From: Minisyncoccota bacterium
Lineage (GTDB): Bacteria; Patescibacteriota; Minisyncoccia; Phycocordibacterales; UBA6065
NCBI GenBank assembly: GCA_035546035.1
Contig: DASZXC010000008.1
Span: forward strand, 5,202-69,201
Length of the DNA: 64,000 bases
Direction of reading: 5' to 3'
Shown: positions 3,443 to 63,382 of the stretch, piece after piece
How the letters are laid out: each line of letters opens with the position of its first letter
How positions within the stretch are numbered: position 1 is the stretch's first letter
Translations under genes and position numbers: made by a program
Notes under the pieces: model-generated
The model's database searches: none
Told to the model about the DNA's origin: nothing
Seen by the model: the letters and a program-made list of their open reading frames with translations, nothing else

Positions 3443-4741
3443 TCAAAATACGGATTTTACGGCCGCGATCAGATCCGTCGAACGGAAATAGGTCGAAAGC
3501 TCGCTCTTCCAATTCGGATCTTTTATGGAAACGTCGGGCACGACGCCGTTCGATTCGACAGGCTGATTGTCGTCGCGGAGCGTAAGGCTGTGAACGAGGA
3601 GCATCGAGTATCTCTCGCTCGGATCGATGACGGTCTCGATCGGAAACGTATTCTCGACGGTGCCCCATCCGCGCGTCGTTTCCCCGACCGAATGCGCGAG
3701 GCCGAGGCGCTTCATGGCGGCGGTCGTCACTTCAGCCGTCGACTGGCTCGCCCCATCGGTCAATATGGCGATCTCTTTGTATCGTCCGAGCTCGGCGAAT
3801 TTCGGCGCGGTCGTGCGCTGCGGCTTGTATTCGCCCTGATGGTACAGGTCATATGCGTACTGATTCTCTCCTATGAAAAGCCCGACGAATGCGGCCGCGA
3901 AGTCGAGCGATCCGCCCAGATTGCCGCGAAGGTCTATGATCATACTCGATAGGCCGGGCGTAGTCGTCGCTGACAGGATCGTCCTACCGAATTCGATGAA
4001 CGTCGTCGGCGATATGCTTGAAATGCTCACGTAAAGCGTCTTCCCTACCGCTTTGCTTTTGACCGTCGGCTCTATACCGCCCGCGTCATAGAGGTCTTTG
4101 GTATTCGGATTGGCGAGCACCTCCTTTGCATACGACACCTGTTCGAGCTCCTTTCGCGCTTCGGACGATGTCTTGGCTTCTGCGGCAAGGACCTTCTGCT
4201 TTTCCTCTGCTGCTTTGTTCACGTCTTCGGCGCTCGCGCCTGCGGCCAAGCCGAGGTCCTGATAGAGATTCTTCTCCGGATGGATATTGCTTACCCCCTG
4301 GCGCAGTTCGGTTTCCTGTACGGCGGAAAGGAGCTGCCCATGCCCCACGGGCTGCAGGTTATAGAGAGCGATGATGAGCGTATCCACGACCATCTGCTTT
4401 TTTGCGGCAGTGGACGTCGCGGCATCGATCGCGGTCTTGAGCATTTCTGCCGTCCCGACGCGGTTGCGAGTCGCGAGAAGCGGCACGACGGGGCTATTCA
4501 GGGCTTTCTGGAGCGAAAGCTGGAAATGGTCCGCCACCTGCTCTTCCGTCGTCGAAGCCCAGTAATTCTCGCGGATCTTGTCGTACGCTTCCATACCGAA
4601 ACGCACGTATGGGTCGGATTCTTCAGGAGTTTTATATGTCGCTTCAGCGGCGCGAGAATTCAGGCTGTGGAGCGTTGCGAACACGGCACCGCCGGCAAGT
4701 GCGAGAGAAAGGACAATAACGACGATACGTTTCAATGACAT
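3443..4741 (-). CDS. C-terminal processing (tail-specific) peptidase, S41 family, with N-terminal TM anchor and a J-domain-like insert
   Basis: S41 motifs are present (IIDLRGNLGG, TDGASQSTAEV). Confidence 0.75.
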   Translation of the reverse strand: MSLKRIVVIVLSLALAGGAVFATLHSLNSRAAEATYKTPEESDPYVRFGMEAYDKIRENYWASTTEEQVADHFQLSLQKALNSPVVPLLATRNRVGTAEMLKTAIDAATSTAAKKQMVVDTLIIALYNLQPVGHGQLLSAVQETELRQGVSNIHPEKNLYQDLGLAAGASAEDVNKAAEEKQKVLAAEAKTSSEARKELEQVSYAKEVLANPNTKDLYDAGGIEPTVKSKAVGKTLYVSISSISPTTFIEFGRTILSATTTPGLSSMIIDLRGNLGGSLDFAAAFVGLFIGENQYAYDLYHQGEYKPQRTTAPKFAELGRYKEIAILTDGASQSTAEVTTAAMKRLGLAHSVGETTRGWGTVENTFPIETVIDPSERYSMLLVHSLTLRDDNQPVESNGVVPDVSIKDPNWKSELSTYFRSTDLIAAVKSVF

Positions 4742-7317
4742 GTAGAGGGGGCATTAGTAATTCCTCGAAGGAGGCAGAAGCATATGGCCCGGAGCGAAGA
4801 AAAGAGTTTAGTCAGTATTGTGCACGCGAGCTTATAGGCTTCAGTATACCAGAAAGACGGCGCGGTCCTTGAAATTATGGCCGCGGAAATGGATGCATTC
4901 GCAGGCTTTTCATTATCTTCTTCCACGTCGTTGGTAAAAATCACGACCTTTTCGTGAGAATTGTCGTGAATAGTATCAGAAGTTGCGCTAGGCATAGCGA
5001 CAAGAGCTTTTCTGCTTGGTGGCATAGGCCTCAACGCCGCACCTGGCTCCGTATCCGTTGGGACTGGCGGAGCAGGCGCTTCCGCCGAGGTCCCTCTTTC
5101 TTCAATTCCCTGCACCGCACCATCAATAATTTTCAATTCCAGGCTTCTACTTTCGCTGGGCGTGATCTGATCAGTAAAACTTGAAAAAGACGAGGTTGCA
5201 TCGGAGACAGACTCGGTCTCGACGGTATATTCACCATATCCAGTGCCTTGAACTTCGATTTCATATGTTCCGTCTATTGGATCAGGGATAGATATGAAGT
5301 GGATTTCAGCGTCATCGCCTGAATAAAATACTCCCGGAGTATCGAGGGCATCTTCTCCTACCGGAGATAGGACGCTCATCTTCGCCGGAGAATGCATAGA
5401 TATAATGAGGATATCTCGAGGCATAAAAAACGGACCTGATGAAGAGATAGGCGTAGTCGTCGCGCCGAGCATATCCAAGACGAGCGATGCCGCCTTGTCA
5501 GGCAATTCAGAATGAGTCGATGCGATCGGCGTATCTGACCCCATATAAAGAAAGGCGCTCCGCATAGGCACCGTGCCATCGCCGAGATCATATTCAAAAC
5601 CGATCGGCGTTCCATGCATCCATTTTTCAGAGGTCGTCGCGCCCTTGTCCGCGGTGATGATCGAAAGAGTATTCGTACCGCTATTCCCGACGATATTGCC
5701 TACCCTCAATGATGGATTGCTTAAAGAGTTTTTATTTCGATCGAGATTCTCAAGGAAAAGATTCGCCGGATAGCCGTCAGGATAGAAGGCCGGCTTATTG
5801 TAATCAGTCGTATCGATATATCCGTATATGGGCAGAAGCTCACTTACGGAAGGAACTTCGCCGCTTCGCATATAGCTCAAAGCACCCTTATATCCATGTG
5901 CCCGGGCATAGAGATCGATGAGGATTTTAAGCACCCTGTCCCACAGAGAATTACTGCCCATCTCCCCTCCTTCAGCCATAAGATATGCCAAAGGAGCGCC
6001 GTGCTGGGGAGTGCCAAGGAATATAAGATCGGCCACGTCGTTTCTGTAATCGACGGATTCTATGTACGATCTGACCGCGAGACCTCCCATCGAGTGAGCG
6101 ACGACGTCTACTTTCGGGCAGCCGCAGATATGTTTTATCTCCTCGATCCTATCTTTTAGAGCATTGCCTGTATCCACGTTCGATCTTCTCCAATCATACG
6201 GAAAGGTAAAAAGGGTCGAGGTCCCGTAGCCGACCCTCTCAAGCACGGTCACGAGTCCGTCGTATGTATGGAAGACGGGATCTAAAATCCATTTAGTTCC
6301 TAATTGAAATGAGCCGAGGATACCAGGAACGATGACGACCGGCCTTTTAAGAGAGGACTCTCCGAGATTCTGCTCTAACGCAGCCGTTTTTTCGGTTGAA
6401 GTCGCTCCGACATCGGGAGAATATGTGAGCCATGGGAAAAAATCGGTTCGCGGAAAGATCCATGACCCTATGCCTGCAATATTATCGCTATATCTCGGCC
6501 CTGACTGGTCTCCCCACCAATTGTTAATTGCCGTAACAGTTCCAGCGTAGGCAGAGAGCACATCGACCCCATTCTCTATACCGATGAAACTCGAGTTCTG
6601 TATAGAGATATCGCCTCCTTCGATATGCACCCCTTCTTTTCCATTAAGAAAGAGCGAATCGGTGATTCTAAGGACTCCCGTAGATTCTACGGACAGAGCT
6701 GCCCATGCGGGCGCGTTGAATGTAGAATACGTTACCGACAGATTGCCCCTCACAAGGATCATCGGCAGATCAGTGCAGCCGGTATGACAGGAATGCTCGC
6801 CTCCATATTCGACGACCACGTGAGAAAAGATGCTTTGGGAACCTGCGTCTATGATGATCGGATCTTCCCAATCCCCGGCAATGGGATTTTGAGAATTCGA
6901 TGTAAAGACAATCGGCTCTTCGGCAGTTCCACGAGCCTCGATATTGCCGAGCGCATCGAGGAAAAAGCCGTCGGCCATACGGACCTCGACTCCGGGTTCG
7001 ATTGAGAGCGTTAAGTCCTCCGGGATATTGAGGCCTCGATCTAATATATAAGGACTTCCCTCCTTTATCCATGAAGTGGAAGAAGCGAGAGTCTCGTCAG
7101 CGATTACTGTCGAAGCATGAGCAAAATCGGCCCATGACCAAGCACATATAATAAGAAGGAGGGGACGGAGAAAATGACTACCGTACGGTCGCAGTCTGCG
7201 CTGATTCTCCTTTTTCCTGAAAATGTCCGGTGATATAGAGGATACCGAGAGACGCCAGGATGATAGCGCCGAGGCCGAGAGCGAATCTAAAGAAATCTTT
7301 GTCGAACATGGCTTCAT
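4732..7317 (-). CDS. Membrane-anchored extracellular LCAT-like alpha/beta-hydrolase (lipase/acyltransferase) fused to an N-terminal parallel beta-helix domain
   Basis: 861 aa. A TM/signal-anchor segment lies at about aa 55-75. Beta-helix-like repeats follow. The hydrolase domain has FPYDWRRS, nucleophile elbow VVAHSMGG and GDGTVP. A Ser/Thr-rich C-terminal region ends the protein. Confidence 0.65.
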   Translation of the reverse strand: MKPCSTKISLDSLSASALSSWRLSVSSISPDIFRKKENQRRLRPYGSHFLRPLLLIICAWSWADFAHASTVIADETLASSTSWIKEGSPYILDRGLNIPEDLTLSIEPGVEVRMADGFFLDALGNIEARGTAEEPIVFTSNSQNPIAGDWEDPIIIDAGSQSIFSHVVVEYGGEHSCHTGCTDLPMILVRGNLSVTYSTFNAPAWAALSVESTGVLRITDSLFLNGKEGVHIEGGDISIQNSSFIGIENGVDVLSAYAGTVTAINNWWGDQSGPRYSDNIAGIGSWIFPRTDFFPWLTYSPDVGATSTEKTAALEQNLGESSLKRPVVIVPGILGSFQLGTKWILDPVFHTYDGLVTVLERVGYGTSTLFTFPYDWRRSNVDTGNALKDRIEEIKHICGCPKVDVVAHSMGGLAVRSYIESVDYRNDVADLIFLGTPQHGAPLAYLMAEGGEMGSNSLWDRVLKILIDLYARAHGYKGALSYMRSGEVPSVSELLPIYGYIDTTDYNKPAFYPDGYPANLFLENLDRNKNSLSNPSLRVGNIVGNSGTNTLSIITADKGATTSEKWMHGTPIGFEYDLGDGTVPMRSAFLYMGSDTPIASTHSELPDKAASLVLDMLGATTTPISSSGPFFMPRDILIISMHSPAKMSVLSPVGEDALDTPGVFYSGDDAEIHFISIPDPIDGTYEIEVQGTGYGEYTVETESVSDATSSFSSFTDQITPSESRSLELKIIDGAVQGIEERGTSAEAPAPPVPTDTEPGAALRPMPPSRKALVAMPSATSDTIHDNSHEKVVIFTNDVEEDNEKPANASISAAIISRTAPSFWYTEAYKLACTILTKLFSSLRAICFCLLRGITNAPSTCH

Positions 7318-7344
7318 AGTAGCATTCTTGGTAAGGCTTATAAA

Positions 7345-8619
7345 TCATTTCTCGAGCGCTCTTATGAGACGGGATCTCACCTCTTCGAGAGTGAGATCTC
7401 CTGCATAAGGTTGAACCGACGTCTGGGCGATCACTTTTCCTGACGGATTTGCTATGCGGATGAAATCCTTGGGTGAGTCGATATTGACCATATCGAGAGG
7501 GATCTCAATGGATGAAAGCGGGAGAATAATCGTGTCTTGAGGGAATGCGAACCTCTTTTCAGAGTCTTCAAGGATAAATCCGCCGATATTCACTTCTCCT
7601 TTACCTTGATTCGACAGCAGCATCCGTCCAGGTAAAAGGGATAGCGCTATGGAGGGTTCGATTATCCTGACCTTCACCTTGGCGACAGCGTGGAATCCTC
7701 CATAATCAGTATTCGTAATCACGATATAATCGCCAGGATACTGATATGCATGCGAAACGATCTGTCCGATGAGAAGCGACCCGTCCCCCATCGTCCATAC
7801 GCTTCGCAGGCCAGAACCGACGGCAACGTCTTTCGACTTCTTTACCTTTGCTTCAAAGGAGAGCGGCGCGCCGACGAAGCCTATGCGCGGTCTTCCTGCG
7901 GTCACTTCGAATTGAGGAGCGTCATAGGAAGTGTTGGCGACCTCCTGACTGCTATGAGCCGAGGTATCCGAATCACCAGACGATGAAGAGCTTCCGCTGT
8001 CTGAGCCCATGGAATCGCCTGATTGATCATCGGTACTTCCGCCTTCTTCAGCGGGAGGAGCCGCGGATTCCGTTGCGATCGTCACCGATCCGACCGATAC
8101 GGCAGCGGCGATCCACTCTCCTGTTCCTGTTTTCTGCAAGGTATTTCCGTCACCGGCAGCGCCAATCATTGGATCATAAGAGACGCTATCCATAGATACG
8201 CCCGTATCATCATCAATGCTGATCGTCTCGCCTTCATTGCTCAAGGAAAAAGCGCTGTCGAAAAGAAGTCCTGAAAATCCCGGATTATCGATCTTGAACT
8301 TATCAGGATTGTCAGCGATGACTGCGAATCCGCCTGCCGGGAGAAGCGATTCGCCGATCACGGAAATCTTGTGATTTACGCCGCCCTCGACGAATCTCCA
8401 TGTTGAAAGGTCTACGGATTCCGATCCGGTATTCTGTACTTCGACCCATTCCCTGCCGGAATCGGTTCCCGGCGCGTCATACATGATTTCGGTTATCGCC
8501 GCGGCCGCTGAAACACCTAGAGGTATAGACGCAAAAAGCCAAACGAAAAGCATGAGTCTCCACGCCGCCGTGTCGGAAAATTTCGCCGGATATTTTTTAC
8601 GATAAGAAAGAGTCCGCAT
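7345..8619 (-). CDS. Secreted lamin-tail-domain (LTD) protein with PKD-like domain
   Basis: N-terminal signal peptide. LTD signature ITEIMYDAPGTDSGREWVEVQNTGSESVDLSTWRF. A Ser/Asp-rich linker follows. PKD-like motif TMGDGS...HAYQYPGDYIV. Confidence 0.65.
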   Translation of the reverse strand: MRTLSYRKKYPAKFSDTAAWRLMLFVWLFASIPLGVSAAAAITEIMYDAPGTDSGREWVEVQNTGSESVDLSTWRFVEGGVNHKISVIGESLLPAGGFAVIADNPDKFKIDNPGFSGLLFDSAFSLSNEGETISIDDDTGVSMDSVSYDPMIGAAGDGNTLQKTGTGEWIAAAVSVGSVTIATESAAPPAEEGGSTDDQSGDSMGSDSGSSSSSGDSDTSAHSSQEVANTSYDAPQFEVTAGRPRIGFVGAPLSFEAKVKKSKDVAVGSGLRSVWTMGDGSLLIGQIVSHAYQYPGDYIVITNTDYGGFHAVAKVKVRIIEPSIALSLLPGRMLLSNQGKGEVNIGGFILEDSEKRFAFPQDTIILPLSSIEIPLDMVNIDSPKDFIRIANPSGKVIAQTSVQPYAGDLTLEEVRSRLIRALEK

Positions 8620-31989: not shown

Positions 31990-33711
31990 CTACATCCTCT
32001 CCGGCACCTTCATGCCGAGGAGCTTCGCGCCGTTCACGAGCACGATGCGTACGGCCTGGGTCAGAGCGACCTTGTACGGCGATTCGCCGTCATCTTTGCC
32101 GACGATAGGCACGTTCGCATACCAGGAATTGAATACCGACGAGAGCTCGATGAGATACGTCGCGATGTGGTGCGGCGCCTCTTCGCGCGCCGATCGGCCG
32201 ACGACTTCAGGGAATCGGGCAAGCGCCTTTTCGAGAGGACCGACAATGACTCCCTTTCTTTCGATCCTCGGTTTCACGCCCTCTTTCTTCGCTTTATCCA
32301 AAACGGATTGAGCGCGGACGGCGGTATAGAGGAGATACGGGCCCGAATCGCCTTCGAACGATATGGACTTATCAAAATCATAGATGATATCCGACGACGT
32401 GACCTGTCGCAGGATCGAATATTTGATGGCGGCGACGGCGACGGCCTCGGTCGCCTCGGCCTTTTGCTTGTCGGTCATTTCGCGGGCCGCGAGCTTTTCC
32501 GTGACCATCTTTTCGACGTCGGCGATGAGCGACTCGCCCGTGATGACGTTGCCCTTTCGCGACGACATCTTGCCTTCGGCGAAGCGGAGCATGCCGTGGG
32601 CGATGTGCTTGGTTACCCGGGCGGCTTCAGGCTCGATGATCTCGAGCGCCTTCAGGACGACGCGGAAATAATCGCTCTGCTCGTTCGCGGTGATGATGAT
32701 AGACTCGTCAGGCCTGACCTTCTTCCATTTTTTGGTATTGAGGCCGAGCTCTTTCGTTTCATACGTCGGAATGCCCTGCGAGTTTATGAATACGCGGGTG
32801 TGGAGCTTTGGATCGTATCTCTCGCCCTTAAATACCGTCGCGCCGTCAGATTTTTCGAATACGCCTTTGCCCAGCCACTCTTCGACGAGCGCCACGCCGT
32901 CATGCGCGACCTCGGATTCGAGATAGAAATAGTCGAATTTGGTGCCGAGCTTTTCATATATGCCGTCGAAATGATCGAGGCTCCATTTCTTGCCGAGCTT
33001 ATAGAGCTTCATGAGCTTGCGCTCCTTTCCTTCGAAGACTTTCTTGTTGATCGCTTCGATCACCTCTTTTGCCGCGGGATCGTCTTCGAACGCGCGCGAG
33101 CCTTCGACGTATGAAGCGCCGAGGAATGCGATGCGCTCCTCTAGAGGAGCGCGCTTCGATGGCATACTCGCCTCGTTCTTCTGCATCGCCCAAAGAGCCT
33201 TGGCTACGTGCATGCCGAAATCGCCCTGATAGCACATGCGGCGGATCTTGGCGCCCTGCGACGCAGTGAGGCGCGCGATCGATTCGCCGATAGCGTTCGA
33301 CATGAGGTGACCGATATGGAATTCCTTGAACGGATTCGGATCGGTGTATTCGATGAGCACTTTCCTGCCTCTCCATTCGTTCGAATTGCCGTAGAGATCT
33401 TTACGCTTGAGTATCGTTTCGAGCTCTTTCGTATAGAAACTCGACGCCAAATAGAAATTGACGAAGCCGGGACCGGCGACGTCTATCCTTTCGACCGATT
33501 CGATGTGCTGGGCGCGCAAAGCCTCTGCGAGCTTCATGCCGAGCTCGCGCGGATTCTGTTTGGCCTGCTTCGCGAGAGCCATCGCCACGTTCGTCGCAAA
33601 ATCGCCGTTCGCGGCGTCGGCAGGATGCTCGATGACGATCTCGCCGGCGGACATGCCGAGAGATTTCAGAGCGCCCTCTATTCCCGTCCGTATCTTAGTC
33701 TCTATATCCAT
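31990..33711 (-). CDS. argS: Arginyl-tRNA synthetase
   Basis: 573 aa. ArgRS N-terminal domain, HIGH (FHIGHL) and a KMSK-like region. Confidence 0.9.
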   Translation of the reverse strand: MDIETKIRTGIEGALKSLGMSAGEIVIEHPADAANGDFATNVAMALAKQAKQNPRELGMKLAEALRAQHIESVERIDVAGPGFVNFYLASSFYTKELETILKRKDLYGNSNEWRGRKVLIEYTDPNPFKEFHIGHLMSNAIGESIARLTASQGAKIRRMCYQGDFGMHVAKALWAMQKNEASMPSKRAPLEERIAFLGASYVEGSRAFEDDPAAKEVIEAINKKVFEGKERKLMKLYKLGKKWSLDHFDGIYEKLGTKFDYFYLESEVAHDGVALVEEWLGKGVFEKSDGATVFKGERYDPKLHTRVFINSQGIPTYETKELGLNTKKWKKVRPDESIIITANEQSDYFRVVLKALEIIEPEAARVTKHIAHGMLRFAEGKMSSRKGNVITGESLIADVEKMVTEKLAAREMTDKQKAEATEAVAVAAIKYSILRQVTSSDIIYDFDKSISFEGDSGPYLLYTAVRAQSVLDKAKKEGVKPRIERKGVIVGPLEKALARFPEVVGRSAREEAPHHIATYLIELSSVFNSWYANVPIVGKDDGESPYKVALTQAVRIVLVNGAKLLGMKVPERM

Positions 33712-45910: not shown

Positions 45911-46098
45911 TATTTCTGATGCGGATTTTTCGGCACTTTGGCTCCCGCTTTGCGGGCTTCGGAGAGGCCGATCGCTATCGCCTGCTTCCTGCTGGTCACC
46001 TTTTTGCCGCTTCGCCCCGATTTCAGGTCGCTGCGCTTGTATTCAAGCATAGCCTTTTTCACTTTTGCCTGCGATTTTTTGCCGTATTTTCGTGCCAT
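45910..46098 (-). CDS. Small basic protein (about 62 aa), hypothetical
   Basis: The likely start is MARKYGKKSQAKVKK... The ORF track extends to 46149, into the terminator hairpin. Lys/Arg-rich. Confidence 0.4.
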   Translation of the reverse strand: MARKYGKKSQAKVKKAMLEYKRSDLKSGRSGKKVTSRKQAIAIGLSEARKAGAKVPKNPHQK

Positions 46099-46137
46099 AC
46101 TCGTTTTCGGATTACCCAGTAACCGAAGATAGTACGT

Positions 46138-46171
46138 AAAAAGCCGCACGAGGGGTGCTCAGCGGCTTTTT
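46138..46171 (-). terminator. Intrinsic terminator hairpin
   Basis: aaaaagccgc acgaggggtgctca gcggcttttt. Confidence 0.5.
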
Positions 46172-46327
46172 ACTCACGATGCGCTATTTGATTACCATCA
46201 AGCTAATTCTTCTCTGTGTCCTTATCGTTCATATTGATTGGGTTTAAGGTTAAGAAGAGCCGACATGAGGGTGTTGCGATGATCGGCTCTTGTATATCTA
46301 TACGCATGGGGAAAGAATTTCTTTCCG

Positions 46328-46358
46328 AAAAAAAGCCCGTGCGCATTCGCGCACGGGC
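46328..46358 (-). terminator. Intrinsic terminator just 3' of ORF 46363..46827
   Basis: Perfect 10-bp stem gcccgtgcgc attc gcgcacgggc. On the minus strand it is followed by a T-run. Confidence 0.55.
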
Positions 46359-46362
46359 AGGA

Positions 46363-46827
46363 TTATTTAATTACAGGACATGACTCGCGAAACGACTTCA
46401 AGCTTCCAAAAGCAACAGGCAGGTTCCTCGGCGTTGATCTGGAGTTGTCGCCCCAAATGCATTCCGAGAAATCCTCTATCACCTTGAGATCAGGATGGCC
46501 TTCGCACCAACTCATTCCGACAGGGAGCTCACACCCCTTTTGCCAGATTGGCTTAAGGAGATTGAACGCAAAATTCCCCGGCTTGTAGCGTCCATACCCC
46601 TTATGGGTCTGGAGATCGAGGAACTGGTGCCGCCTCGGATCGAGCTTCTCCGCCTTCGCGATAGCAGCAATGATCTGCTCGGCGAAATTGATGGTAGACC
46701 CGACCCGTCCCTCTTTAGCCGAATGCAGACCGCTGAACACGATCTGCCGACCATATATCACATACACGACTTCGTTGAGAGGAAGAAAACCTCCCGACGA
46801 TTCGTATCTGACCGTTTTTCCTTTCAA
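46363..46827 (-). CDS. Hypothetical protein in a lower-GC patch
   Basis: 154-aa ORF with GC visibly lower than its neighbours. No recognisable family. Confidence 0.45.
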   Translation of the reverse strand: MKGKTVRYESSGGFLPLNEVVYVIYGRQIVFSGLHSAKEGRVGSTINFAEQIIAAIAKAEKLDPRRHQFLDLQTHKGYGRYKPGNFAFNLLKPIWQKGCELPVGMSWCEGHPDLKVIEDFSECIWGDNSRSTPRNLPVAFGSLKSFRESCPVIK

Positions 46828-46892
46828 AGAGAGCCTTTCGTTGAATTGACTATCTGGTTTGCATTATAACATAAACATATATAAAGTCAATA

Positions 46893-47753
46893 TTACTTCC
46901 CGTCTCCTATACGCGCCTCCTTGTGCAAAAGCATGATGAGGATGAAAGAGAAGATCAGGAGCATGTACCACGACGTGAATTTCTGGAATGAAACAGGGTT
47001 CCAGCTGACAGCCTGATTCGGATACACCCAGACGCGCGCGAAGGTGCCGATCTGTTCGGCGAGCCATACGAACAGCGCGAGCAAGGCGTTAGTGAAGAGA
47101 GGATGGAACGTGTATCGCCTATCCGTGAGCTCGACGCGGAGCTTGGTTCTCCAAAAAATGACTATGAGCAGAGCGAAGATGAGCCAACGGACGTCATGGA
47201 CGTAATGGTTCGTGAAGAAATTGATATAGATAAGAAGACCAGCCAGCGACAGCACGATCTTGCTCGGCATATCGGTGAATACGAATTCGTTTATCCTCCA
47301 CGCTCGTGCCATGTACGAGCCGACGGCTGAGTAGAGAAAGCCCGTGAAGAGCGGCACCGTGCCGATCGCGAGCACGGCATGTTCGGGATATGCCCACGAC
47401 CCCACTCCGGGCGACGTCTTGAATATCTCCATGCACATGGCGCAGATATGGAAGACGATGATGGCGATGACTTCGCGGGGCGTTTCCAGTTTCGCGACGA
47501 TGAGGACGACCTGCGTGACGACGGCCAATATGAACAAGAGGTCATACCTCTCTATCCCCGGCACCGACGCGTATTTCGTGGCTAAAAGGAAAAACAGCAT
47601 CAGCCCGCCGAAGAGCGAGCATGAGGCTTGTTTCCTTATGAAGATAAAAAACTCGGAAATCACAGAATCTATAACCACCGCTGAAGAGACAAAGTGTCCA
47701 TTGGAAATATTCAATAGAGCACGTCGCTCTAGGACTTGCGAGAGCGGCGGCAC
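46893..47753 (-). CDS. Polytopic integral membrane protein (hypothetical)
   Basis: 286 aa with about 8 TM helices. Confidence 0.5.
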   Translation of the reverse strand: MPPLSQVLERRALLNISNGHFVSSAVVIDSVISEFFIFIRKQASCSLFGGLMLFFLLATKYASVPGIERYDLLFILAVVTQVVLIVAKLETPREVIAIIVFHICAMCMEIFKTSPGVGSWAYPEHAVLAIGTVPLFTGFLYSAVGSYMARAWRINEFVFTDMPSKIVLSLAGLLIYINFFTNHYVHDVRWLIFALLIVIFWRTKLRVELTDRRYTFHPLFTNALLALFVWLAEQIGTFARVWVYPNQAVSWNPVSFQKFTSWYMLLIFSFILIMLLHKEARIGDGK

Positions 47754-47765
47754 ATCTCTTGGCCT

Positions 47766-49136
47766 CTAGAACTCCTGGAAATTAGGGATGAGAGTCTGAG
47801 AAGAGACCCAAAGGGTATGGCTATCTGTCTGCCCTCCGCCCGACGCGATGAATATAACCGAACAGGATGCGTTGACCCCTGCCGAGAATTTGAGCTGAAC
47901 GGAGAGGCCTATCCTTCCGGAAGGAGCTCTGTAGTTCCCCGCCGAGTCGAACGTCATGACAGCCTGGGGCGCCGCCTCAAAATCCGCTCCGTCGAATGAA
48001 TAAGAGACGTTCGAGCATGTGGTCGAATCGACCCTGACAACGACACTCTGATCAAAAGAGCCGAACGGGTTGACCTCTAGATCCTTCACTGGGCTCGTGC
48101 CGTCCAGATTCGAAGAGAATTTCGCCGAAACAGACGCGTCTCCATCGAGCGTGAACCCGCTCGAGACGTTACCGCCATCATTGGCGCCTCCGCCATCGGT
48201 ATTGTCACTACCATTCCCGCCAGGAGCATAGTCACACGGAAGAAGACCGCCGACATTAACCGCAGCCGCATCCTGGCAGACATTTACGGGAGGATACGAG
48301 CACGGAAGAAGACCGCCGTAATTTAAAGCATTCGAATCCTGACAAGCCGATAGAGGATAGGCGCAATTGACCGCCTCTCCATAATTAATCGCCGCGGGAT
48401 CGGAACAGACGGCAGGCGGTTGCACCACAAGAGCGCAATTCAAAGATTTCCCGCTTCCGGAAAGAGCGGCGTTACCGCCGTCGCCTATATTGATCCCGTA
48501 TGCGTCGATCGCGTGGGCCGAGCCGTCTTTGACGGACACCGGGGTCGGGAAAGAAAAGGCGTGATTGCCGACGTCTCCCCTATAGCCGTCGGCATGAGCC
48601 GCTCCCACGAATGCGCCGTCTGAATAAAAGTGGACATCGATGGCGGCATTAGGGTCGTCAGCATCCGATGCCCAGCCATTGAACGAATCGCACGATGCGG
48701 AATCGAGCCAGCCTTGAGGATTATTAGGATCGGTATGAGTGACCGGCGGCTGATCTACGCAGTTGCCCGCAGCGTCTTTGACCATACCAGGAGGCACGGA
48801 ATCCTGATTTCCTGAAACGTTAGGGCATATGTCGACGGGATTGCCGGAACCTCCGCCAGAGCCGACTTCTGGATTTGCGGGTTCGCCAGAGTACTCATAG
48901 TAAAAATCGGTGATGCCAGAATAGCTGCCGCAGTCGAGGGTTCCCGTTCCGATAGGTCTCCACTCATCGTCAAAACTCCTGCAACCTTCGGAAGTGTCGC
49001 TATCAAATCCGTCGAGATGGAAATCACTGCTTGAGTATTGAGCATTCACCCGCAGAATGGCCACATTGAAGAAAAAGAGGGTGAAGATGATCAGGGCCGC
49101 CCTCAACGAACGCCTCTCTTGAAATTTTCGTGTCAT
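47766..49136 (-). CDS. Secreted protein with triple cysteine-containing tandem repeat and Gly/Asp-rich regions
   Basis: 456 aa with a signal peptide. Three consecutive repeats of about 21 aa lie at aa 240-305, with pattern C-x-D-x(2-3)-A-[ILV]-N-[YV]-G-x(3)-[NP]-C-x-Y-[PA]-P. Confidence 0.6.
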   Translation of the reverse strand: MTRKFQERRSLRAALIIFTLFFFNVAILRVNAQYSSSDFHLDGFDSDTSEGCRSFDDEWRPIGTGTLDCGSYSGITDFYYEYSGEPANPEVGSGGGSGNPVDICPNVSGNQDSVPPGMVKDAAGNCVDQPPVTHTDPNNPQGWLDSASCDSFNGWASDADDPNAAIDVHFYSDGAFVGAAHADGYRGDVGNHAFSFPTPVSVKDGSAHAIDAYGINIGDGGNAALSGSGKSLNCALVVQPPAVCSDPAAINYGEAVNCAYPLSACQDSNALNYGGLLPCSYPPVNVCQDAAAVNVGGLLPCDYAPGGNGSDNTDGGGANDGGNVSSGFTLDGDASVSAKFSSNLDGTSPVKDLEVNPFGSFDQSVVVRVDSTTCSNVSYSFDGADFEAAPQAVMTFDSAGNYRAPSGRIGLSVQLKFSAGVNASCSVIFIASGGGQTDSHTLWVSSQTLIPNFQEF

Positions 49137-50476
49137 ATCTTTTTAATATGCGCTTTAGTCCGAGATATCCGTACCGAGAGCGCATAGACTAGGGTCGCCG
49201 AGACGATAACGATAAAGGACAAGGCCGCCGTGCTCGGCACGGAACCGGCTTCGCCGTGCCGAGAGAGCGAGTAAAGCACGCGCGCGTTTTCGATGGTGCT
49301 CGATGCTTTCAGGATATCACCCTTTAATATAAGGTCTCCGCTATAGTCCGCGTCAGGCGTCAAAAAACCGGAAAAGCCGCTCACGGAGATGCCGCTGAGC
49401 GTGCCAATATCGGCAAAGACGCTGCCGTCAGGCTTTAAAAGCGAGAGATGCACCAAATAATCGCGATCCTCCGCGATGGCATGGTCGGTGAAAGCGCATC
49501 CCGATACCTTTACGACTTTGCCTTTTTCGAGAGGGAAAGAACCGAGGCTCAAAGAGATAAACGTCGCATACGGCGCATCTCTGTTAAAGATCCGGTATGA
49601 GTAGTACGAATTCTTGCCGCCGTCCTTCATTTCGACAAGAACATGGTAGAGAGGATCCGCCAAGGCCGGGATCGCGAACGAGGCTGCGGCTTTTCCGGAT
49701 ACGAATCGGATGTCTTGATCGACAGAGCTTACAAGCTGAGAATCGTCGATGACGTTCGATCGATAGACCTTCCAAGAAATCGAGGCGCCGTGCGTCGTCA
49801 TATCGGTCGATATCAGGCTAAGCGTCGTCGTCGCTGAACGGGATGCGGAAAGAGAAAGCATGCGATTGGGATCAAGAGGCTTTTCATTCACCCGTATCGA
49901 TGAAGGATCGATGAAGGAAGCTCGGGAAGCCGAAGAGGTAACGGTAAAGAGCGTGCTGGCGCCCGTTTCCCTATCGCTCTGCTCCGCTCCGGCAAGCTCC
50001 AACTCGCCGCTTGATATGAGGAAAGTGCTCGCCTTATACGTCCCGCTGACGAGCTCCGCAGGGACTTTCCACGCGAAAGAGAAAGGGATCGATGCTCCGC
50101 CAAGAACCTGGATATTCGTAAAGGGCACCGCCCTATACACGACATCCGGGGTCTTGGCGTAGAAAGATCCCTGGCTCTGGGCTATCTTTTCTATTCGAAT
50201 GACAAGAGAACCGTCCGTTACAGGGGCAAGCGCCGAATTGCGGATGCTTCCTGAGAATATCGCCGAATCTCCTGAAACAAGGGAATGGATAGGCAGGAGC
50301 GTCACTGTTACGGGACTTTTTGAGATGATACAAGACCTTGAGATGAAAATATCATTATTTGCCGGCAATGTGGCGCCCGAAACTGGATACGCAACAATCC
50401 CGACCGCTAAGCCGACAGCAGAGGCGCATGCAAGAAGTATCGAGAGAAAAGAGGCTGATCTTTGTGATATCATCAT
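49133..50476 (-). CDS. Surface protein with N-terminal signal peptide and C-terminal TM anchor plus basic tail (hypothetical)
   Basis: 447 aa. It overlaps the downstream gene by 4 nt (operon). The C-terminus is FIVIVSATLVYALSVRISRTKAHIKKI. Confidence 0.55.
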   Translation of the reverse strand: MMISQRSASFLSILLACASAVGLAVGIVAYPVSGATLPANNDIFISRSCIISKSPVTVTLLPIHSLVSGDSAIFSGSIRNSALAPVTDGSLVIRIEKIAQSQGSFYAKTPDVVYRAVPFTNIQVLGGASIPFSFAWKVPAELVSGTYKASTFLISSGELELAGAEQSDRETGASTLFTVTSSASRASFIDPSSIRVNEKPLDPNRMLSLSASRSATTTLSLISTDMTTHGASISWKVYRSNVIDDSQLVSSVDQDIRFVSGKAAASFAIPALADPLYHVLVEMKDGGKNSYYSYRIFNRDAPYATFISLSLGSFPLEKGKVVKVSGCAFTDHAIAEDRDYLVHLSLLKPDGSVFADIGTLSGISVSGFSGFLTPDADYSGDLILKGDILKASSTIENARVLYSLSRHGEAGSVPSTAALSFIVIVSATLVYALSVRISRTKAHIKKI

Positions 50477-52099: not shown

Positions 52100-52172
52100 G
52101 GGTGCCTAATGGGAATCGAACCCATGACGCCGGGACCACAATCCAGCGTTTTACCACTAAACTATAGGCACC
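52100..52172 (-). tRNA. tRNA-His (anticodon GTG) with genomically encoded G-1
   Basis: Manual fold. Extra 5' G opposite discriminator C. Acceptor GTGCCTA/TAGGCAC. Anticodon loop UUGUGGU. T-arm ATGGG/CCCAT. Confidence 0.7.
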
Positions 52173-52182
52173 ATTCTTTTGG

Positions 52183-52218
52183 AAAAGCACCGAACGGACG
52201 TACCGCTCGGTGCTTTTT
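52183..52218. terminator. Hairpin plus T-run between tRNA-His and tRNA-Leu
   Basis: agcaccga ... tcggtgct followed by ttttt. Confidence 0.45.
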
Positions 52219-52223
52219 CCGTG

Positions 52224-52305
52224 TGCGCGGAAGAGGACTTGAACCTCCATGCCTTGCGGCGCTACCACCTCAAGGTAGTGTGTCTGCCAATTCCACCATC
52301 CGCGC
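52224..52305 (-). tRNA. tRNA-Leu (anticodon GAG)
   Basis: Manual fold. Acceptor GCGCGGA/TCCGCGC with discriminator A. Long variable arm. Anticodon loop UUGAGGU. Confidence 0.7.
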
Positions 52306-52377
52306 ATCTATGACCGCGTGGCCATAATAGCCGAGAGCGTCCTCAAAATCAAATCCCGCGCGATGCGCGGGATTTTG

Positions 52378-52794
52378 TTACTTTGCCGGAACCGCTTCCG
52401 CCTTCGGAGCCTCTGCAAGAGGCACAGGCTCTTCCTTTGCCGTACGGAGGTTTCGCATCTGGCGACGGACTGCCTTCGCTGCCTTCTCGCGTACGAAGTA
52501 GAGCTTCGAGCGGCGCACCTTCGAGCGGCGGATCACTTCGATCTCGTCGATCATAGGGGTGTAGAGCGGGAAAATCCTCTCTACGCCGACGCCGTCGATG
52601 ACTTTTCGGACGGTGAACGTAGCACCCGGCTCGTCGCCGTGCTTTCGCGAGAGGATAAGGCCTTCGAACGCCTGGAGGCGGCTCTTGTCGCCTTCCTTGA
52701 TCTTCTGCCAGACGCGGACGGTGTCGCCGGATCGGAGGCCGAGCTTCACTCGAGCCGCCATGTCCACAGGAGAAGTGATGATTTTGCTTTCCAT
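52378..52794 (-). CDS. rplS: 50S ribosomal protein L19
   Basis: 138 aa. GDTVRVWQKIKEGDKSRLQAFEG...TFTVRKV..GVGVERIFPL...IEVIRRSKVRRSKLYF. Confidence 0.9.
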   Translation of the reverse strand: MESKIITSPVDMAARVKLGLRSGDTVRVWQKIKEGDKSRLQAFEGLILSRKHGDEPGATFTVRKVIDGVGVERIFPLYTPMIDEIEVIRRSKVRRSKLYFVREKAAKAVRRQMRNLRTAKEEPVPLAEAPKAEAVPAK

Positions 52795-52912
52795 GCTGGT
52801 AATTTCTTGGTCTTTAAACGTGGACGTTAATCTAACACACGGCCTTAATTATCGCAAGAAAGTTGAGTTTTTAGGCGAAATTGGGTATCTTTGCTACGCG
52901 GTTGCTTCATAT

Positions 52913-52988
52913 GCGCCCTTAGCTCAGTTGGTAGAGCAGCTCATTTACACTGAGAAGGTCGGGGGTTCAAGTCCCTCAGGGCGCACCA
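52913..52988 (+). tRNA. tRNA-Val (anticodon TAC), CCA encoded
   Basis: Manual fold. Acceptor GCGCCCT/AGGGCGC with discriminator A and CCA. Anticodon loop UUUACAC. Confidence 0.8.
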
Positions 52989-52998
52989 GAGAGAAGGC

Positions 52999-53035
52999 GC
53001 GAAAAAGCCCGGCGTACGCCGGGCTTTTTCGCGCA
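52999..53035. terminator. Perfect palindromic bidirectional terminator
   Basis: gcgaaaaagcccggcg ta cgccgggctttttcgc. Confidence 0.6.
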
Positions 53036-53037
53036 TG

Positions 53038-53109
53038 TCCCCTCGGTTGGAATCGAACCAACATAACCGGCTTAGAAGTCCGGTGTTCTATCCATTGAAC
53101 TACAAGGGG
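53038..53109 (-). tRNA. tRNA-Arg (anticodon TCT)
   Basis: Manual fold. D-arm GTTC/GAAC. Anticodon loop CUUCUAA. T-arm GTTGG/CCAAC. Acceptor CCCCTTG/CGAGGGG, which implies an unusual C1:G72 pair. Confidence 0.55.
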
Positions 53110-57653: not shown

Positions 57654-57662
57654 AGATTCGAG

Positions 57663-57749
57663 CGGATGGGGTGAGATTCGAACTCACGGTCCCCTTGCGA
57701 GGACGACAGTTTTCAAGACTGTTCCGTTAGACCGCTCCGGCACCCATCC
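57663..57749 (-). tRNA. tRNA-Ser (anticodon TGA)
   Basis: Manual fold. Acceptor GGATGGG/CCCATCC with discriminator G. Long variable arm. Anticodon loop CUUGAAA. Confidence 0.7.
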
Positions 57750-57790
57750 GTGCCTCAACGTTACAACATATGATGCTATAATCAAGGGCG

Positions 57791-58246
57791 ATGAAAGAGT
57801 TCAGGTGGCAGACCCTCGAATACGTCTATAGCGAGAAAAGCTCCGACTGGTATTGGACCGTCGGGATCGTTTCCGTCGCGATCGCCGTCGTCGCCGTCAT
57901 ATTCGGAGACGCGCTCTTCGGCGTCGTGGTCGCGATCGGCGCGTTCTCGCTCACCATGCTCTCCTCGCGCCAGCCGAAAACAATATCGGTCGAGGTGACC
58001 GACAAGGGCGTCGCGATAGACAAAACCCTGTATCCGTATCCTGCCCTCGACGCGTTTTCGGTGGATGAAGACCATCATCACGGACCGAGGCTCCTCCTTA
58101 AGTCCAAGAAGGTCGTCATGCCCCTCATAACGGTTCAGGTCGCGACAGACCCCGACGCTCTGCGCGCGTTTCTCGTCACGCACCTCAAGCAGGAAACTTT
58201 CGACCAGGGCATCCTACACGCGGCCCTCGAAAGGATCGGATTCTGA
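57791..58246 (+). CDS. Hypothetical membrane protein
   Basis: 151 aa with two TM helices near the N-terminus. Confidence 0.4.
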   Translation: MKEFRWQTLEYVYSEKSSDWYWTVGIVSVAIAVVAVIFGDALFGVVVAIGAFSLTMLSSRQPKTISVEVTDKGVAIDKTLYPYPALDAFSVDEDHHHGPRLLLKSKKVVMPLITVQVATDPDALRAFLVTHLKQETFDQGILHAALERIGF

Positions 58247-58291
58247 ATCTCCTTTTACTTTTCGCGATTTTCCTGTAAGTTAGTCTGGCAC

Positions 58292-58366
58292 GCTCTCGTC
58301 GTTCAATGGATAGGACACTTCCCTGCGAAGGAAGAAATCCAGGTTCGATTCCTGGCGGGAGCACCA
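58292..58366 (+). tRNA. tRNA-Arg (anticodon GCG), CCA encoded
   Basis: Manual fold. Acceptor GCTCTCG/CGGGAGC with discriminator A and CCA. Anticodon stem CTTCC/GGAAG. Anticodon loop CUGCGAA. Confidence 0.6.
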
Positions 58367-63302: not shown

Positions 63303-63309
63303 TTCGATG

Positions 63310-63382
63310 TCCGCCCACCAGGAATCGAACCTGGGACCATCTCCTTAAAAGGGAGCTGCTCTACCGACTGAGCTATGGGCGG
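63310..63382 (-). tRNA. tRNA-Lys (anticodon TTT)
   Basis: Manual fold. D-arm GCTC/GAGC. Anticodon loop CUUUUAA. T-arm CCAGG/CCTGG. Acceptor CCGCCCA/TGGGCGG with discriminator A, giving an unusual C1:G72. Confidence 0.65.

Follow-up and report, generated by a model that had tools for sequence, protein, structure and literature searches.

A 64,000-nucleotide stretch of DNA from Minisyncoccota bacterium (assembly GCA_035546035.1, contig DASZXC010000008.1; hereafter the window) encodes, at 47766..49136 on the minus strand, an exported protein of 456 amino acids in which three tandem units each carry two cysteines. We find this repeat to be an unremarkable three-unit case of a large, uncurated family of ~21-residue repeats, each with one putative disulfide. 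The gene follows that of a 447-residue partner, and the pair recurs in several lineages. We favor, with moderate confidence, a reading in which the units, each closed by a disulfide and linked through prolines, form a stalk that separates an Ig-like head from a family-specific C-terminal domain, as part of a surface-display or adhesion module. The host genome is a Candidatus Paceibacterota metagenome-assembled genome (MAG) and belongs to the Candidate Phyla Radiation (CPR, Patescibacteria). All features of the two genes lie on the minus strand, and their coordinates are those of the window.

The first-pass annotation had described a triple tandem Cys repeat at 48221-48419 (residues 240-305), and both the repeat and its location are borne out by an independent profile. 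This profile, a hidden Markov model (HMM) of the unit, was built from 615 units of unrelated proteins (P0010-P0156) with the window protein family left out, so that no circularity arises. It recognizes exactly three domains in the window protein, with a whole-protein score of 66 bits: unit 1 at residues 243-261 (VCSDPAAINYGEAVNCAYP; 48354..48410; E 9.4e-10), unit 2 at residues 265-283 (CQDSNALNYGGLLPCSYPP; 48288..48344; E 2e-12) and unit 3 at residues 285-305 (NVCQDAAAVNVGGLLPCDYAP; 48222..48284; E 4e-10). The three-unit repeat is real and far beyond chance. The pattern C-x-D-x2-A-x-N-[YV]-G-x4-C-x-Y-[PA] is found in exactly three units over residues 243-305, with the first cysteines at 244, 265 and 287 and the second at 258, 279 and 301, each pair spaced C-x13-C and the period being 21-22 residues. 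All three units keep C-x13-C together with the D (+2), A (+5), N (+7) and Y (+16) of the family, and their sole departure is V for Y/F at the less conserved position +8 of unit 3. A degenerate fourth unit that had been suspected upstream (AAGNCVDQPP) could not be sustained. The segment in question, of the form C-x21-C (residues 104-126, ICPNVSGNQDSVPPGMVKDAAGNCVDQPP; 48759..48827), has no match to the unit HMM, and its C104-C126 span aligns with C-x-D-G-S-x-V-x5-C-P-P, a different two-Cys motif of the orthologous proteins P0002 and P0003. This second two-Cys repeat, C-x-D-G-S-x-V-x5-C-P-P-x-T-K in its longer form, precedes or interleaves with the main repeat in the orthologues and is without a family match; its sites are P0002 98-170, P0003 63-135, about residue 258 of the protein at locus L006 and 48759-48827 in the window.

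The repeat is not peculiar to this gene pair, but is one three-unit case of a family that extends far beyond it. When a profile of real three-unit segments was compared with 1.84 billion representative proteins (clusters at the 50%-identity level), 848 matched at E<=1e-3, 275 at E<=1e-10 and 60 at E<=1e-30. A unit census of the best 150 of the 848 matching proteins distinguished two forms. The short form, to which the window units belong, is spaced C-x13-C (632 units, consensus PQTCQDPSATNYGGPLPCTYPPP), and the family consensus can be written P-Q-T-C-Q-D-P-S-A-T-N-Y-G-G-P-L-P-C-T-Y-P-P. The long form is spaced C-x18-C (375 units, consensus VxGCTDPxAxNYNPxATxDDGSCxY). Both have C-x-D-P-x-A-x-N-Y and C-x-Y in common, and 14 proteins contain the two together. 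The near-invariant positions C, D, A, N, C and Y are the same across lineages, and the remaining positions vary freely. Family proteins in the census carry 2-29 units, joined by linkers of mostly 4-9 residues (P 17%, Y 15%, T 13%); the array is interior, with at least 80 residues on either side, in 99 of 149 proteins, and a hydrophobic N-terminus is present in 109 of the 139 members that look full-length.

Where short-form proteins carry an organism name, they come from Candidatus Nomurabacteria and Patescibacteria, and their typical layout is a signal peptide, an FN3-like domain, the array, Ig-like domains, DUF11 and a C-terminal transmembrane (TM) segment. The family also reaches secreted proteins of Bacteroidota type: long-form members bear sorting tails of the type IX secretion system (T9SS; Por_Secre_tail) or RCC1 domains. 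The long-form consensus also matches 'virion structural proteins' of Synechococcus myoviruses, among them that of cyanophage S-CAM3 (YP_009321289.1), in which two units lie between the N-terminal domain and Ig-like domains; the phage search with the short-form consensus gave no match. Neither Pfam (2025 copy) nor NCBIfam (2026) has a model that covers the repeat in the window protein (Pfam at E<=10), its orthologues or ten repeat-rich relatives, apart from the PsaN noise discussed below. Among PDB sequences there was no significant match to the window protein, and none to the repeat profile at E<=10. A literature search with the motif string found no description of the repeat, and searches with CPR, cysteine-rich and adhesin terms returned only a general statement that CPR genomes encode extracellular Cys-rich proteins with a proposed role in attachment, their bearers being thought to live attached to hosts (PMC4736985). 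The family seems, therefore, to be uncurated and undescribed in Pfam, NCBIfam, PDB and the searchable literature. Word-index homology searches returned 0 matches for a two-unit profile and only the fragment P0185 for a C-terminal domain profile. Since P0001-P0003 and P0007 reach 130-180 bits locally with the same two-unit profile, and known members score 130-220 bits with the two profiles, we read these nulls as low sensitivity and not as evidence of absence.

How the units might fold was approached by modeling and by cysteine statistics. With an 81-row alignment of the three units, the predicted local distance difference test (pLDDT) score of the AlphaFold2 model rose to 88.7, with a predicted template modeling (pTM) score of 0.41. 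The model consists of compact loops, without helices and without strands of at least three residues, and its pTM is what would be expected of an elongated multi-unit rod. Foldseek found no match among PDB folds, the best being EGF at E 3.3 and probability 0.02. When units were scanned with a relaxed motif, both cysteines were present in 598, both absent in 7 and single in 1, and in 12 of 30 isolated units the 15 residues to either side were free of further Cys. Because the two cysteines come and go together, and because isolated units can lack any neighboring Cys, we infer that Cys1 and Cys2 of a unit pair with each other. We propose that each unit forms an autonomous loop of ~15 residues, closed by its own disulfide, with the near-invariant Asp, Ala, Asn and Tyr as its packing core, and that short Pro/Tyr/Thr-rich linkers join neighboring units. 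The resulting array might constitute a thin, semi-rigid, protease-resistant stalk that spaces the globular domains of exported proteins. In CPR surface proteins and phage virion proteins alike, arrays are flanked by globular domains, which speaks in favor of such a spacer role.

The architecture of the window protein is modular, and we propose the order Sec-type signal, N-terminal region, Ig/FN3-like head, three-unit stalk, Gly/Asn/Asp-rich hinge, and C-terminal beta-sandwich with its tail. As the first-pass annotation held, the protein has the hallmarks of secretion: the signal-peptide-like N-terminus (residues 1-33; 49038..49136) consists of a basic n-region and a hydrophobic core (ALIIFTLFFFNVAIL) followed by VNA-Q, reaches a maximal hydropathy of 2.65 over 15 residues and is modeled by AlphaFold2 as a helix at 2-34, and a hydropathy scan of the protein showed no further TM-like segment. 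The description of the remainder as rich in Gly, Asp and Ser was likewise accurate (G 13.6%, S 13.4% and D 10.6% outside the repeats). The region between signal and head is poorly structured. The head, a middle beta-sandwich of Ig/FN3-like type, spans residues ~136-236 (48429..48731) and is bracketed by C149 and C234. Beyond the units lies a Gly/Asn/Asp-rich flexible linker (residues 306-324; 48165..48221), in a stretch with pLDDT below 50 (305-325), and then the family-specific C-terminal beta-sandwich (residues 325-456; 47769..48164), which was delimited by orthologue identity and AlphaFold2 strands at 326-444 and has conserved cysteines at 374 and 425. Its pLDDT is mostly 56-76 by block from residue 351 and ~40-45 for 321-350, with segments below 50 at 332-348 and 358-360 and values of ~38 for the last residues. 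The C-terminal tail IPNFQEF (47769-47789), predicted to be disordered, follows a pattern, P-x-F-x-E-[IFQ], that is conserved in six sequences (window, P0002, P0003, L006 8385-8402, L006 11511-11528 and P0185) and has the appearance of a short linear motif for docking or recognition. In all, the protein has 14 cysteines, spaced as seven putative module-local pairs. The public collection holds an identical protein (P0001) that starts 10 codons later, at a TTG ten codons downstream of the ATG with GAGAGG ahead of it.

The middle beta-sandwich deserves a remark of its own. With the signature G-W-L-D ... G-W-A-x-D ... I-D-V-H-x-Y-x-D-G ... G-N-H-[AG]-F, it is an unnamed mobile module with relatives in P0004-P0006, P0008 and P0009, where it is joined to a GH25 muramidase (P0005) or to Big_7/PKD arrays (P0009). 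The module may bind cell-wall glycans.

The partner gene (49133..50476) encodes a 447-residue protein that, by open reading frame (ORF) and hydropathy analysis, has a signal-like N-terminus followed by a beta-rich ectodomain; at its C-terminus lies a TM helix (residues 417-435; 49172-49228) with the basic tail RISRTKAHIKKI. It was correctly described at the outset as carrying such a helix and tail without LPXTG, and the view that the two-gene module has no recognized family also holds, as neither protein matches Pfam or NCBIfam; a partner profile likewise gave nothing significant against PDB sequences. The reported overlap of 4 nucleotides between the genes depends on the start codon. It stands if the repeat gene begins at its ATG (ATGA, 49133-49136), and gives way to a gap of 26 nucleotides if it begins at the TTG. 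A search for terminator-like sites between the genes found none; upstream of the partner gene there is a promoter-like site. Three sorting signals were considered for the partner and rejected. An LPXTG sortase substrate would share its TM helix and basic tail, but no LPXTG is conserved before the helix in the orthologues; Gram_pos_anchor (E 0.082) and GG_III-CTERM (E 0.11) each gave only a non-significant match, in one orthologue; and a PEP-CTERM-type signal has neither a conserved motif nor a significant model match. The NCBI annotation gives the partner 331 residues (HVU06457.1). Since the 447-residue ORF holds a signal-like N-terminus and its extra N-terminal region is kept in the orthologues, with invariant columns beginning at residue 35, the true start probably lies upstream of the deposited one.

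The order of partner gene and repeat-protein gene is conserved in four independent lineages, namely the window, L001 (a Logan contig), L002 (a MAG; also L003, L004 and L007) and L006 (a MAG), so that the pair is present in all four of the lineages in which the C-terminal domain adjoins the repeats. The partners of L001 and L002 are 27% identical to that of the window, and the partner orthologues of L001, L002 and L006 have the same C-terminal TM helix and Lys/Arg tail. In the repeat protein, the C-terminal domain of the window is 45-46% identical to those of P0002 and P0003 and 50% identical to the best L006 segment. Stalk and C-terminal domain are constant across the orthologues, the latter ending in P-x-F-x-E-[IF]; the heads vary, with a beta-sandwich in the window, other Cys motifs in P0002 and P0003, and 4-5 TSP_1 domains in L006. 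A third gene follows the pair in three of the four lineages (L001 4420-5811; L002 3062-4273, cut by the contig end; L006 8412-9809) and encodes a polytopic membrane protein, ~465 residues long where complete, with a C-terminal soluble domain. It is followed by a CarS-like protein in L001 and L006; in the window, DUF817 occupies that position. The third gene has no match in Pfam, NCBIfam or PDB, exosortase included, and the C-terminal domain of the repeat protein none in Pfam or NCBIfam. A scan for this domain in genome contigs yielded one new locus (L006), and in metagenome contigs only the known P0003 contig. The two-gene, elsewhere three-gene, module is rare in public data and uncharacterized.

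The L006 orthologue (6924-8405; MAG 'uncultured bacterium MFD04780.bin.2.113') carries its 4-5 TSP_1 domains (Pfam E 1.9e-35) ahead of three Cys units. TSP_1 is an animal-type adhesion module, found here in a CPR-like bacterium. No ATG, GTG or TTG start occurs in the open frame at 6597-6924, and the signal peptide or start may have been lost by frameshift or mis-assembly.

Taken together, we propose that the repeat protein is co-transcribed with its upstream, membrane-anchored partner and is probably held at the cell surface by it. The constant C-terminal domain and tail would dock on the partner and the variable head would bind, the pair thereby acting as a surface-display or attachment module. 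Several points weigh against this proposal. The disulfide, and with it the rigidity of the array, is deduced from sequence, and three units would make only a short stalk. The idea of docking derives from gene adjacency in four lineages; the C-terminal domain is, moreover, carried by a second secreted protein of L006 (10332-11531) and by a fragment (L009), near type IV pilus or type II secretion system genes and not beside a partner. Both tblastn and an HMM search over six-frame ORFs show that the third gene, which accompanies the pair elsewhere, is missing from the 64-kb window. Finally, the conserved Asp and Asn could serve as functional ligands instead, and the D-D-G-S loop found additionally in the long variant is reminiscent of Ca-binding loops.

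These last observations lead to a possible, if rather unlikely, alternative, in which the units are ligand-binding modules (for glycan, cell wall, host surface or Ca2+) and the array provides avidity for attachment. The acidic loop of the long variant would suit such a role, as would the near-invariance of Asp, Asn and Tyr in every unit across lineages, the multivalency of arrays with up to 29 units, and their occurrence in adhesin-like and phage virion proteins, which would be expected to bind receptors. However, typical Ca2+ sites of the EF-hand or dockerin type need more than one acidic residue, and a short unit has a single conserved one, too few for such a site. Arrays usually lie between globular domains and not at the tip, the surface-variable positions offer no conserved aromatic platform beyond the single Tyr, and the orthologues tolerate anything from 3 to 7 units. 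Variation of this kind could also suggest a recent, slippage-prone DNA tandem repeat, that is, a contingency locus whose strain-variable copy number would diversify the surface protein, a reading we regard as improbable. The repeats had been said to be visible at the DNA level, which is true of units 2 and 3 (75% identity over 56 nucleotides at 66-nucleotide spacing), but units 1 and 2 have a common match of only 13 nucleotides, at 63-nucleotide spacing. Tandem Repeats Finder, run on 46000-50000 at its lowest threshold, reported no array in the repeat gene, and on this ground we reject a DNA-level slippage repeat. Copy number, which the first-pass annotation had proposed to compare among strains, does differ among the four orthologues (3, 6, 7 and 3 units), yet mean unit identity is 0.49 within a protein and 0.47-0.52 between orthologues. 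Units that are as different within as between proteins point to old gain and loss and not to recent strain-level slippage. Unit 3 has its best match in the last unit of P0002 and is therefore positionally orthologous to it, and the sole database copy (P0001) is identical to the window protein.

A further alternative, that the repeat is a divergent version of a known module, is highly improbable. A superficial likeness is undeniable: the units are short, Cys-containing and extracellular, and their period of 21-22 residues recalls that of dockerin segments. Nevertheless, no Pfam match was obtained on the window protein at E<=10, ten repeat-rich relatives gave none beyond PsaN noise, NCBIfam gave none, and neither did PDB sequences with the profile at E<=10. 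In the absence of any match in Pfam, NCBIfam, PDB sequences or folds, we conclude that the repeat is not EGF, dockerin or cohesin, and no other known domain emerged. An EGF-like domain has ~40 residues with six Cys, three disulfides and a two-stranded beta-sheet; the units have two Cys per 21 residues, a strandless model and only the insignificant Foldseek match given above. Dockerin (PF00404) comprises two Ca-binding, EF-hand-like loop-helix segments of ~22 residues (D-x-N-x-D-G-x5-D) without Cys; here, Pfam finds no match in either protein, the model lacks helices, and each unit has one conserved acidic residue and two Cys. Cohesin (PF00963), a nine-stranded beta-sandwich of ~150 residues, has no Pfam match in the repeat protein or its partner, and the Myxococcus cysteine-rich repeat (TIGR02232 / DUF4215) none in NCBIfam or Pfam on the window protein or its repeat-rich relatives; TSP1 belongs to the same group of candidates. 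Photosystem I subunit N (PsaN, PF05479) gave weak matches on the long-variant proteins P0046, P0055 and P0021. These are summed from partial matches at profile positions 73-102 (E 1e-8 to 1e-11, no stretch being significant by itself), are seen neither on the short variant nor on the window protein, and are probably a motif-level coincidence with the Cys-x-Asp...Cys loop of PsaN. As for a chance or low-complexity artifact, which the biased Gly/Ser/Asp-rich composition might invite, its likelihood is practically nil: the independent profile gives three in-register matches at E 1e-9 to 1e-12, homologous arrays number in the hundreds, and the unit HMM and the family search together rule it out.

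Returning to the stalk reading, a bolder extension can be offered, but only tentatively. Together with the repeat protein and, in relatives, the polytopic 465-residue membrane protein, the partner might make up an undescribed surface-display system of Patescibacteria, in which secreted adhesins with interchangeable heads (Ig-like, TSP1 or other Cys motifs) carry a dedicated C-terminal beta-sandwich. The disordered P-x-F-x-E-[IF]-COOH tail of this domain would be recognized, by strand insertion or processing, by the partner or by that membrane protein. On this view, CPR bacteria, Bacteroidota and cyanophages would share, in the repeat, a new one-disulfide fold family. Gene pair and C-terminal tail provide a testable hypothesis for how proteins without obvious sortase-type signals are held on the cell. 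A definition of the family would annotate part of many 'hypothetical' surface proteins and help delimit the functional heads of candidate host-attachment proteins in episymbiotic CPR bacteria. The repeat is abundant, is modeled with high confidence, and is found alike in CPR bacteria, in the cargo of the T9SS and in virion proteins of cyanophages. Small disulfide-stabilized extracellular repeats are already familiar as building blocks. Its interest lies in a new small-repeat family without a solved fold and in the docking hypothesis, not in an unexpected mechanism.

The surroundings of the module are an ordinary housekeeping context, with genes for DUF817, a PG_binding_1 protein, DUF2914, QueA and FolD nearby and seven tRNA genes (His, Leu, Val, Arg x2, Ser and Lys) downstream at 52100-53109, 57662-58366 and 63309-63382. 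The window proteins encoded at 4732-7317, 31990-33711 and 49133-50476 are also found on short contigs of a MAG labeled 'Thermodesulfobacteriota bacterium', as one sequence-identical protein (HVY54969.1) and two fragments in the same 90% clusters (HVY55593.1 and HVY54214.1), which suggests bin contamination in that MAG.

Known systems close to that of the window include the Nomurabacteria/Patescibacteria proteins with this repeat, for example P0013 (UniRef100_A0A1F6W4H9, 'DUF11 domain-containing protein'), which have the same C-x-D-P-x-A-x-N-Y-G-G-x-L-P-C-x-Y-P with C-x13-C and a period of 20-23 residues. Like the window protein, they are signal-peptide CPR proteins with tandem arrays between beta-sandwich domains, and the public names we encountered for them leave the repeat unmentioned. 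They differ in having 5-19 units with DUF11 and a TM segment on the same chain, whereas the window protein has three units, another C-terminal domain and its anchor on the partner. The long variant of T9SS-tailed and S-CAM3 virion proteins, V-x-G-C-T-D-P-x-A-x-N-Y-N-P-x-A-T-x-D-D-G-S-C-x-Y, shares the C-x-D-P-x-A-x-N-Y half and the C-x-Y end and is likewise exported or on the virion surface, between domains; it is set apart by a five-residue insertion, an acidic D-D-G-S loop, and other lineages and secretion routes. EGF-like, TSP1 and LDL-A modules are alike in principle, being small disulfide-stabilized tandem extracellular modules that build rod-like stalks, although they have three disulfides in ~40-60 residues, compared with one putative disulfide in ~21 residues and no beta-hairpin core in the window unit. 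On the side of the partner, the TM helix and basic tail resemble sortase/LPXTG and PEP-CTERM/exosortase signals, and relatives of the module adjoin a polytopic membrane protein; unlike in those systems, the partner orthologues keep neither LPXTG nor PEP nor any other motif ahead of the helix. Dockerin and cohesin, the pair behind cellulosome surface display, offer a conceptual analogy to the proposed arrangement, in that a secreted protein carries a C-terminal docking element for an anchored scaffold encoded nearby, and the repeat period (~22) is similar too. The element that we propose to dock here is not the repeat but the C-terminal beta-sandwich together with its tail.

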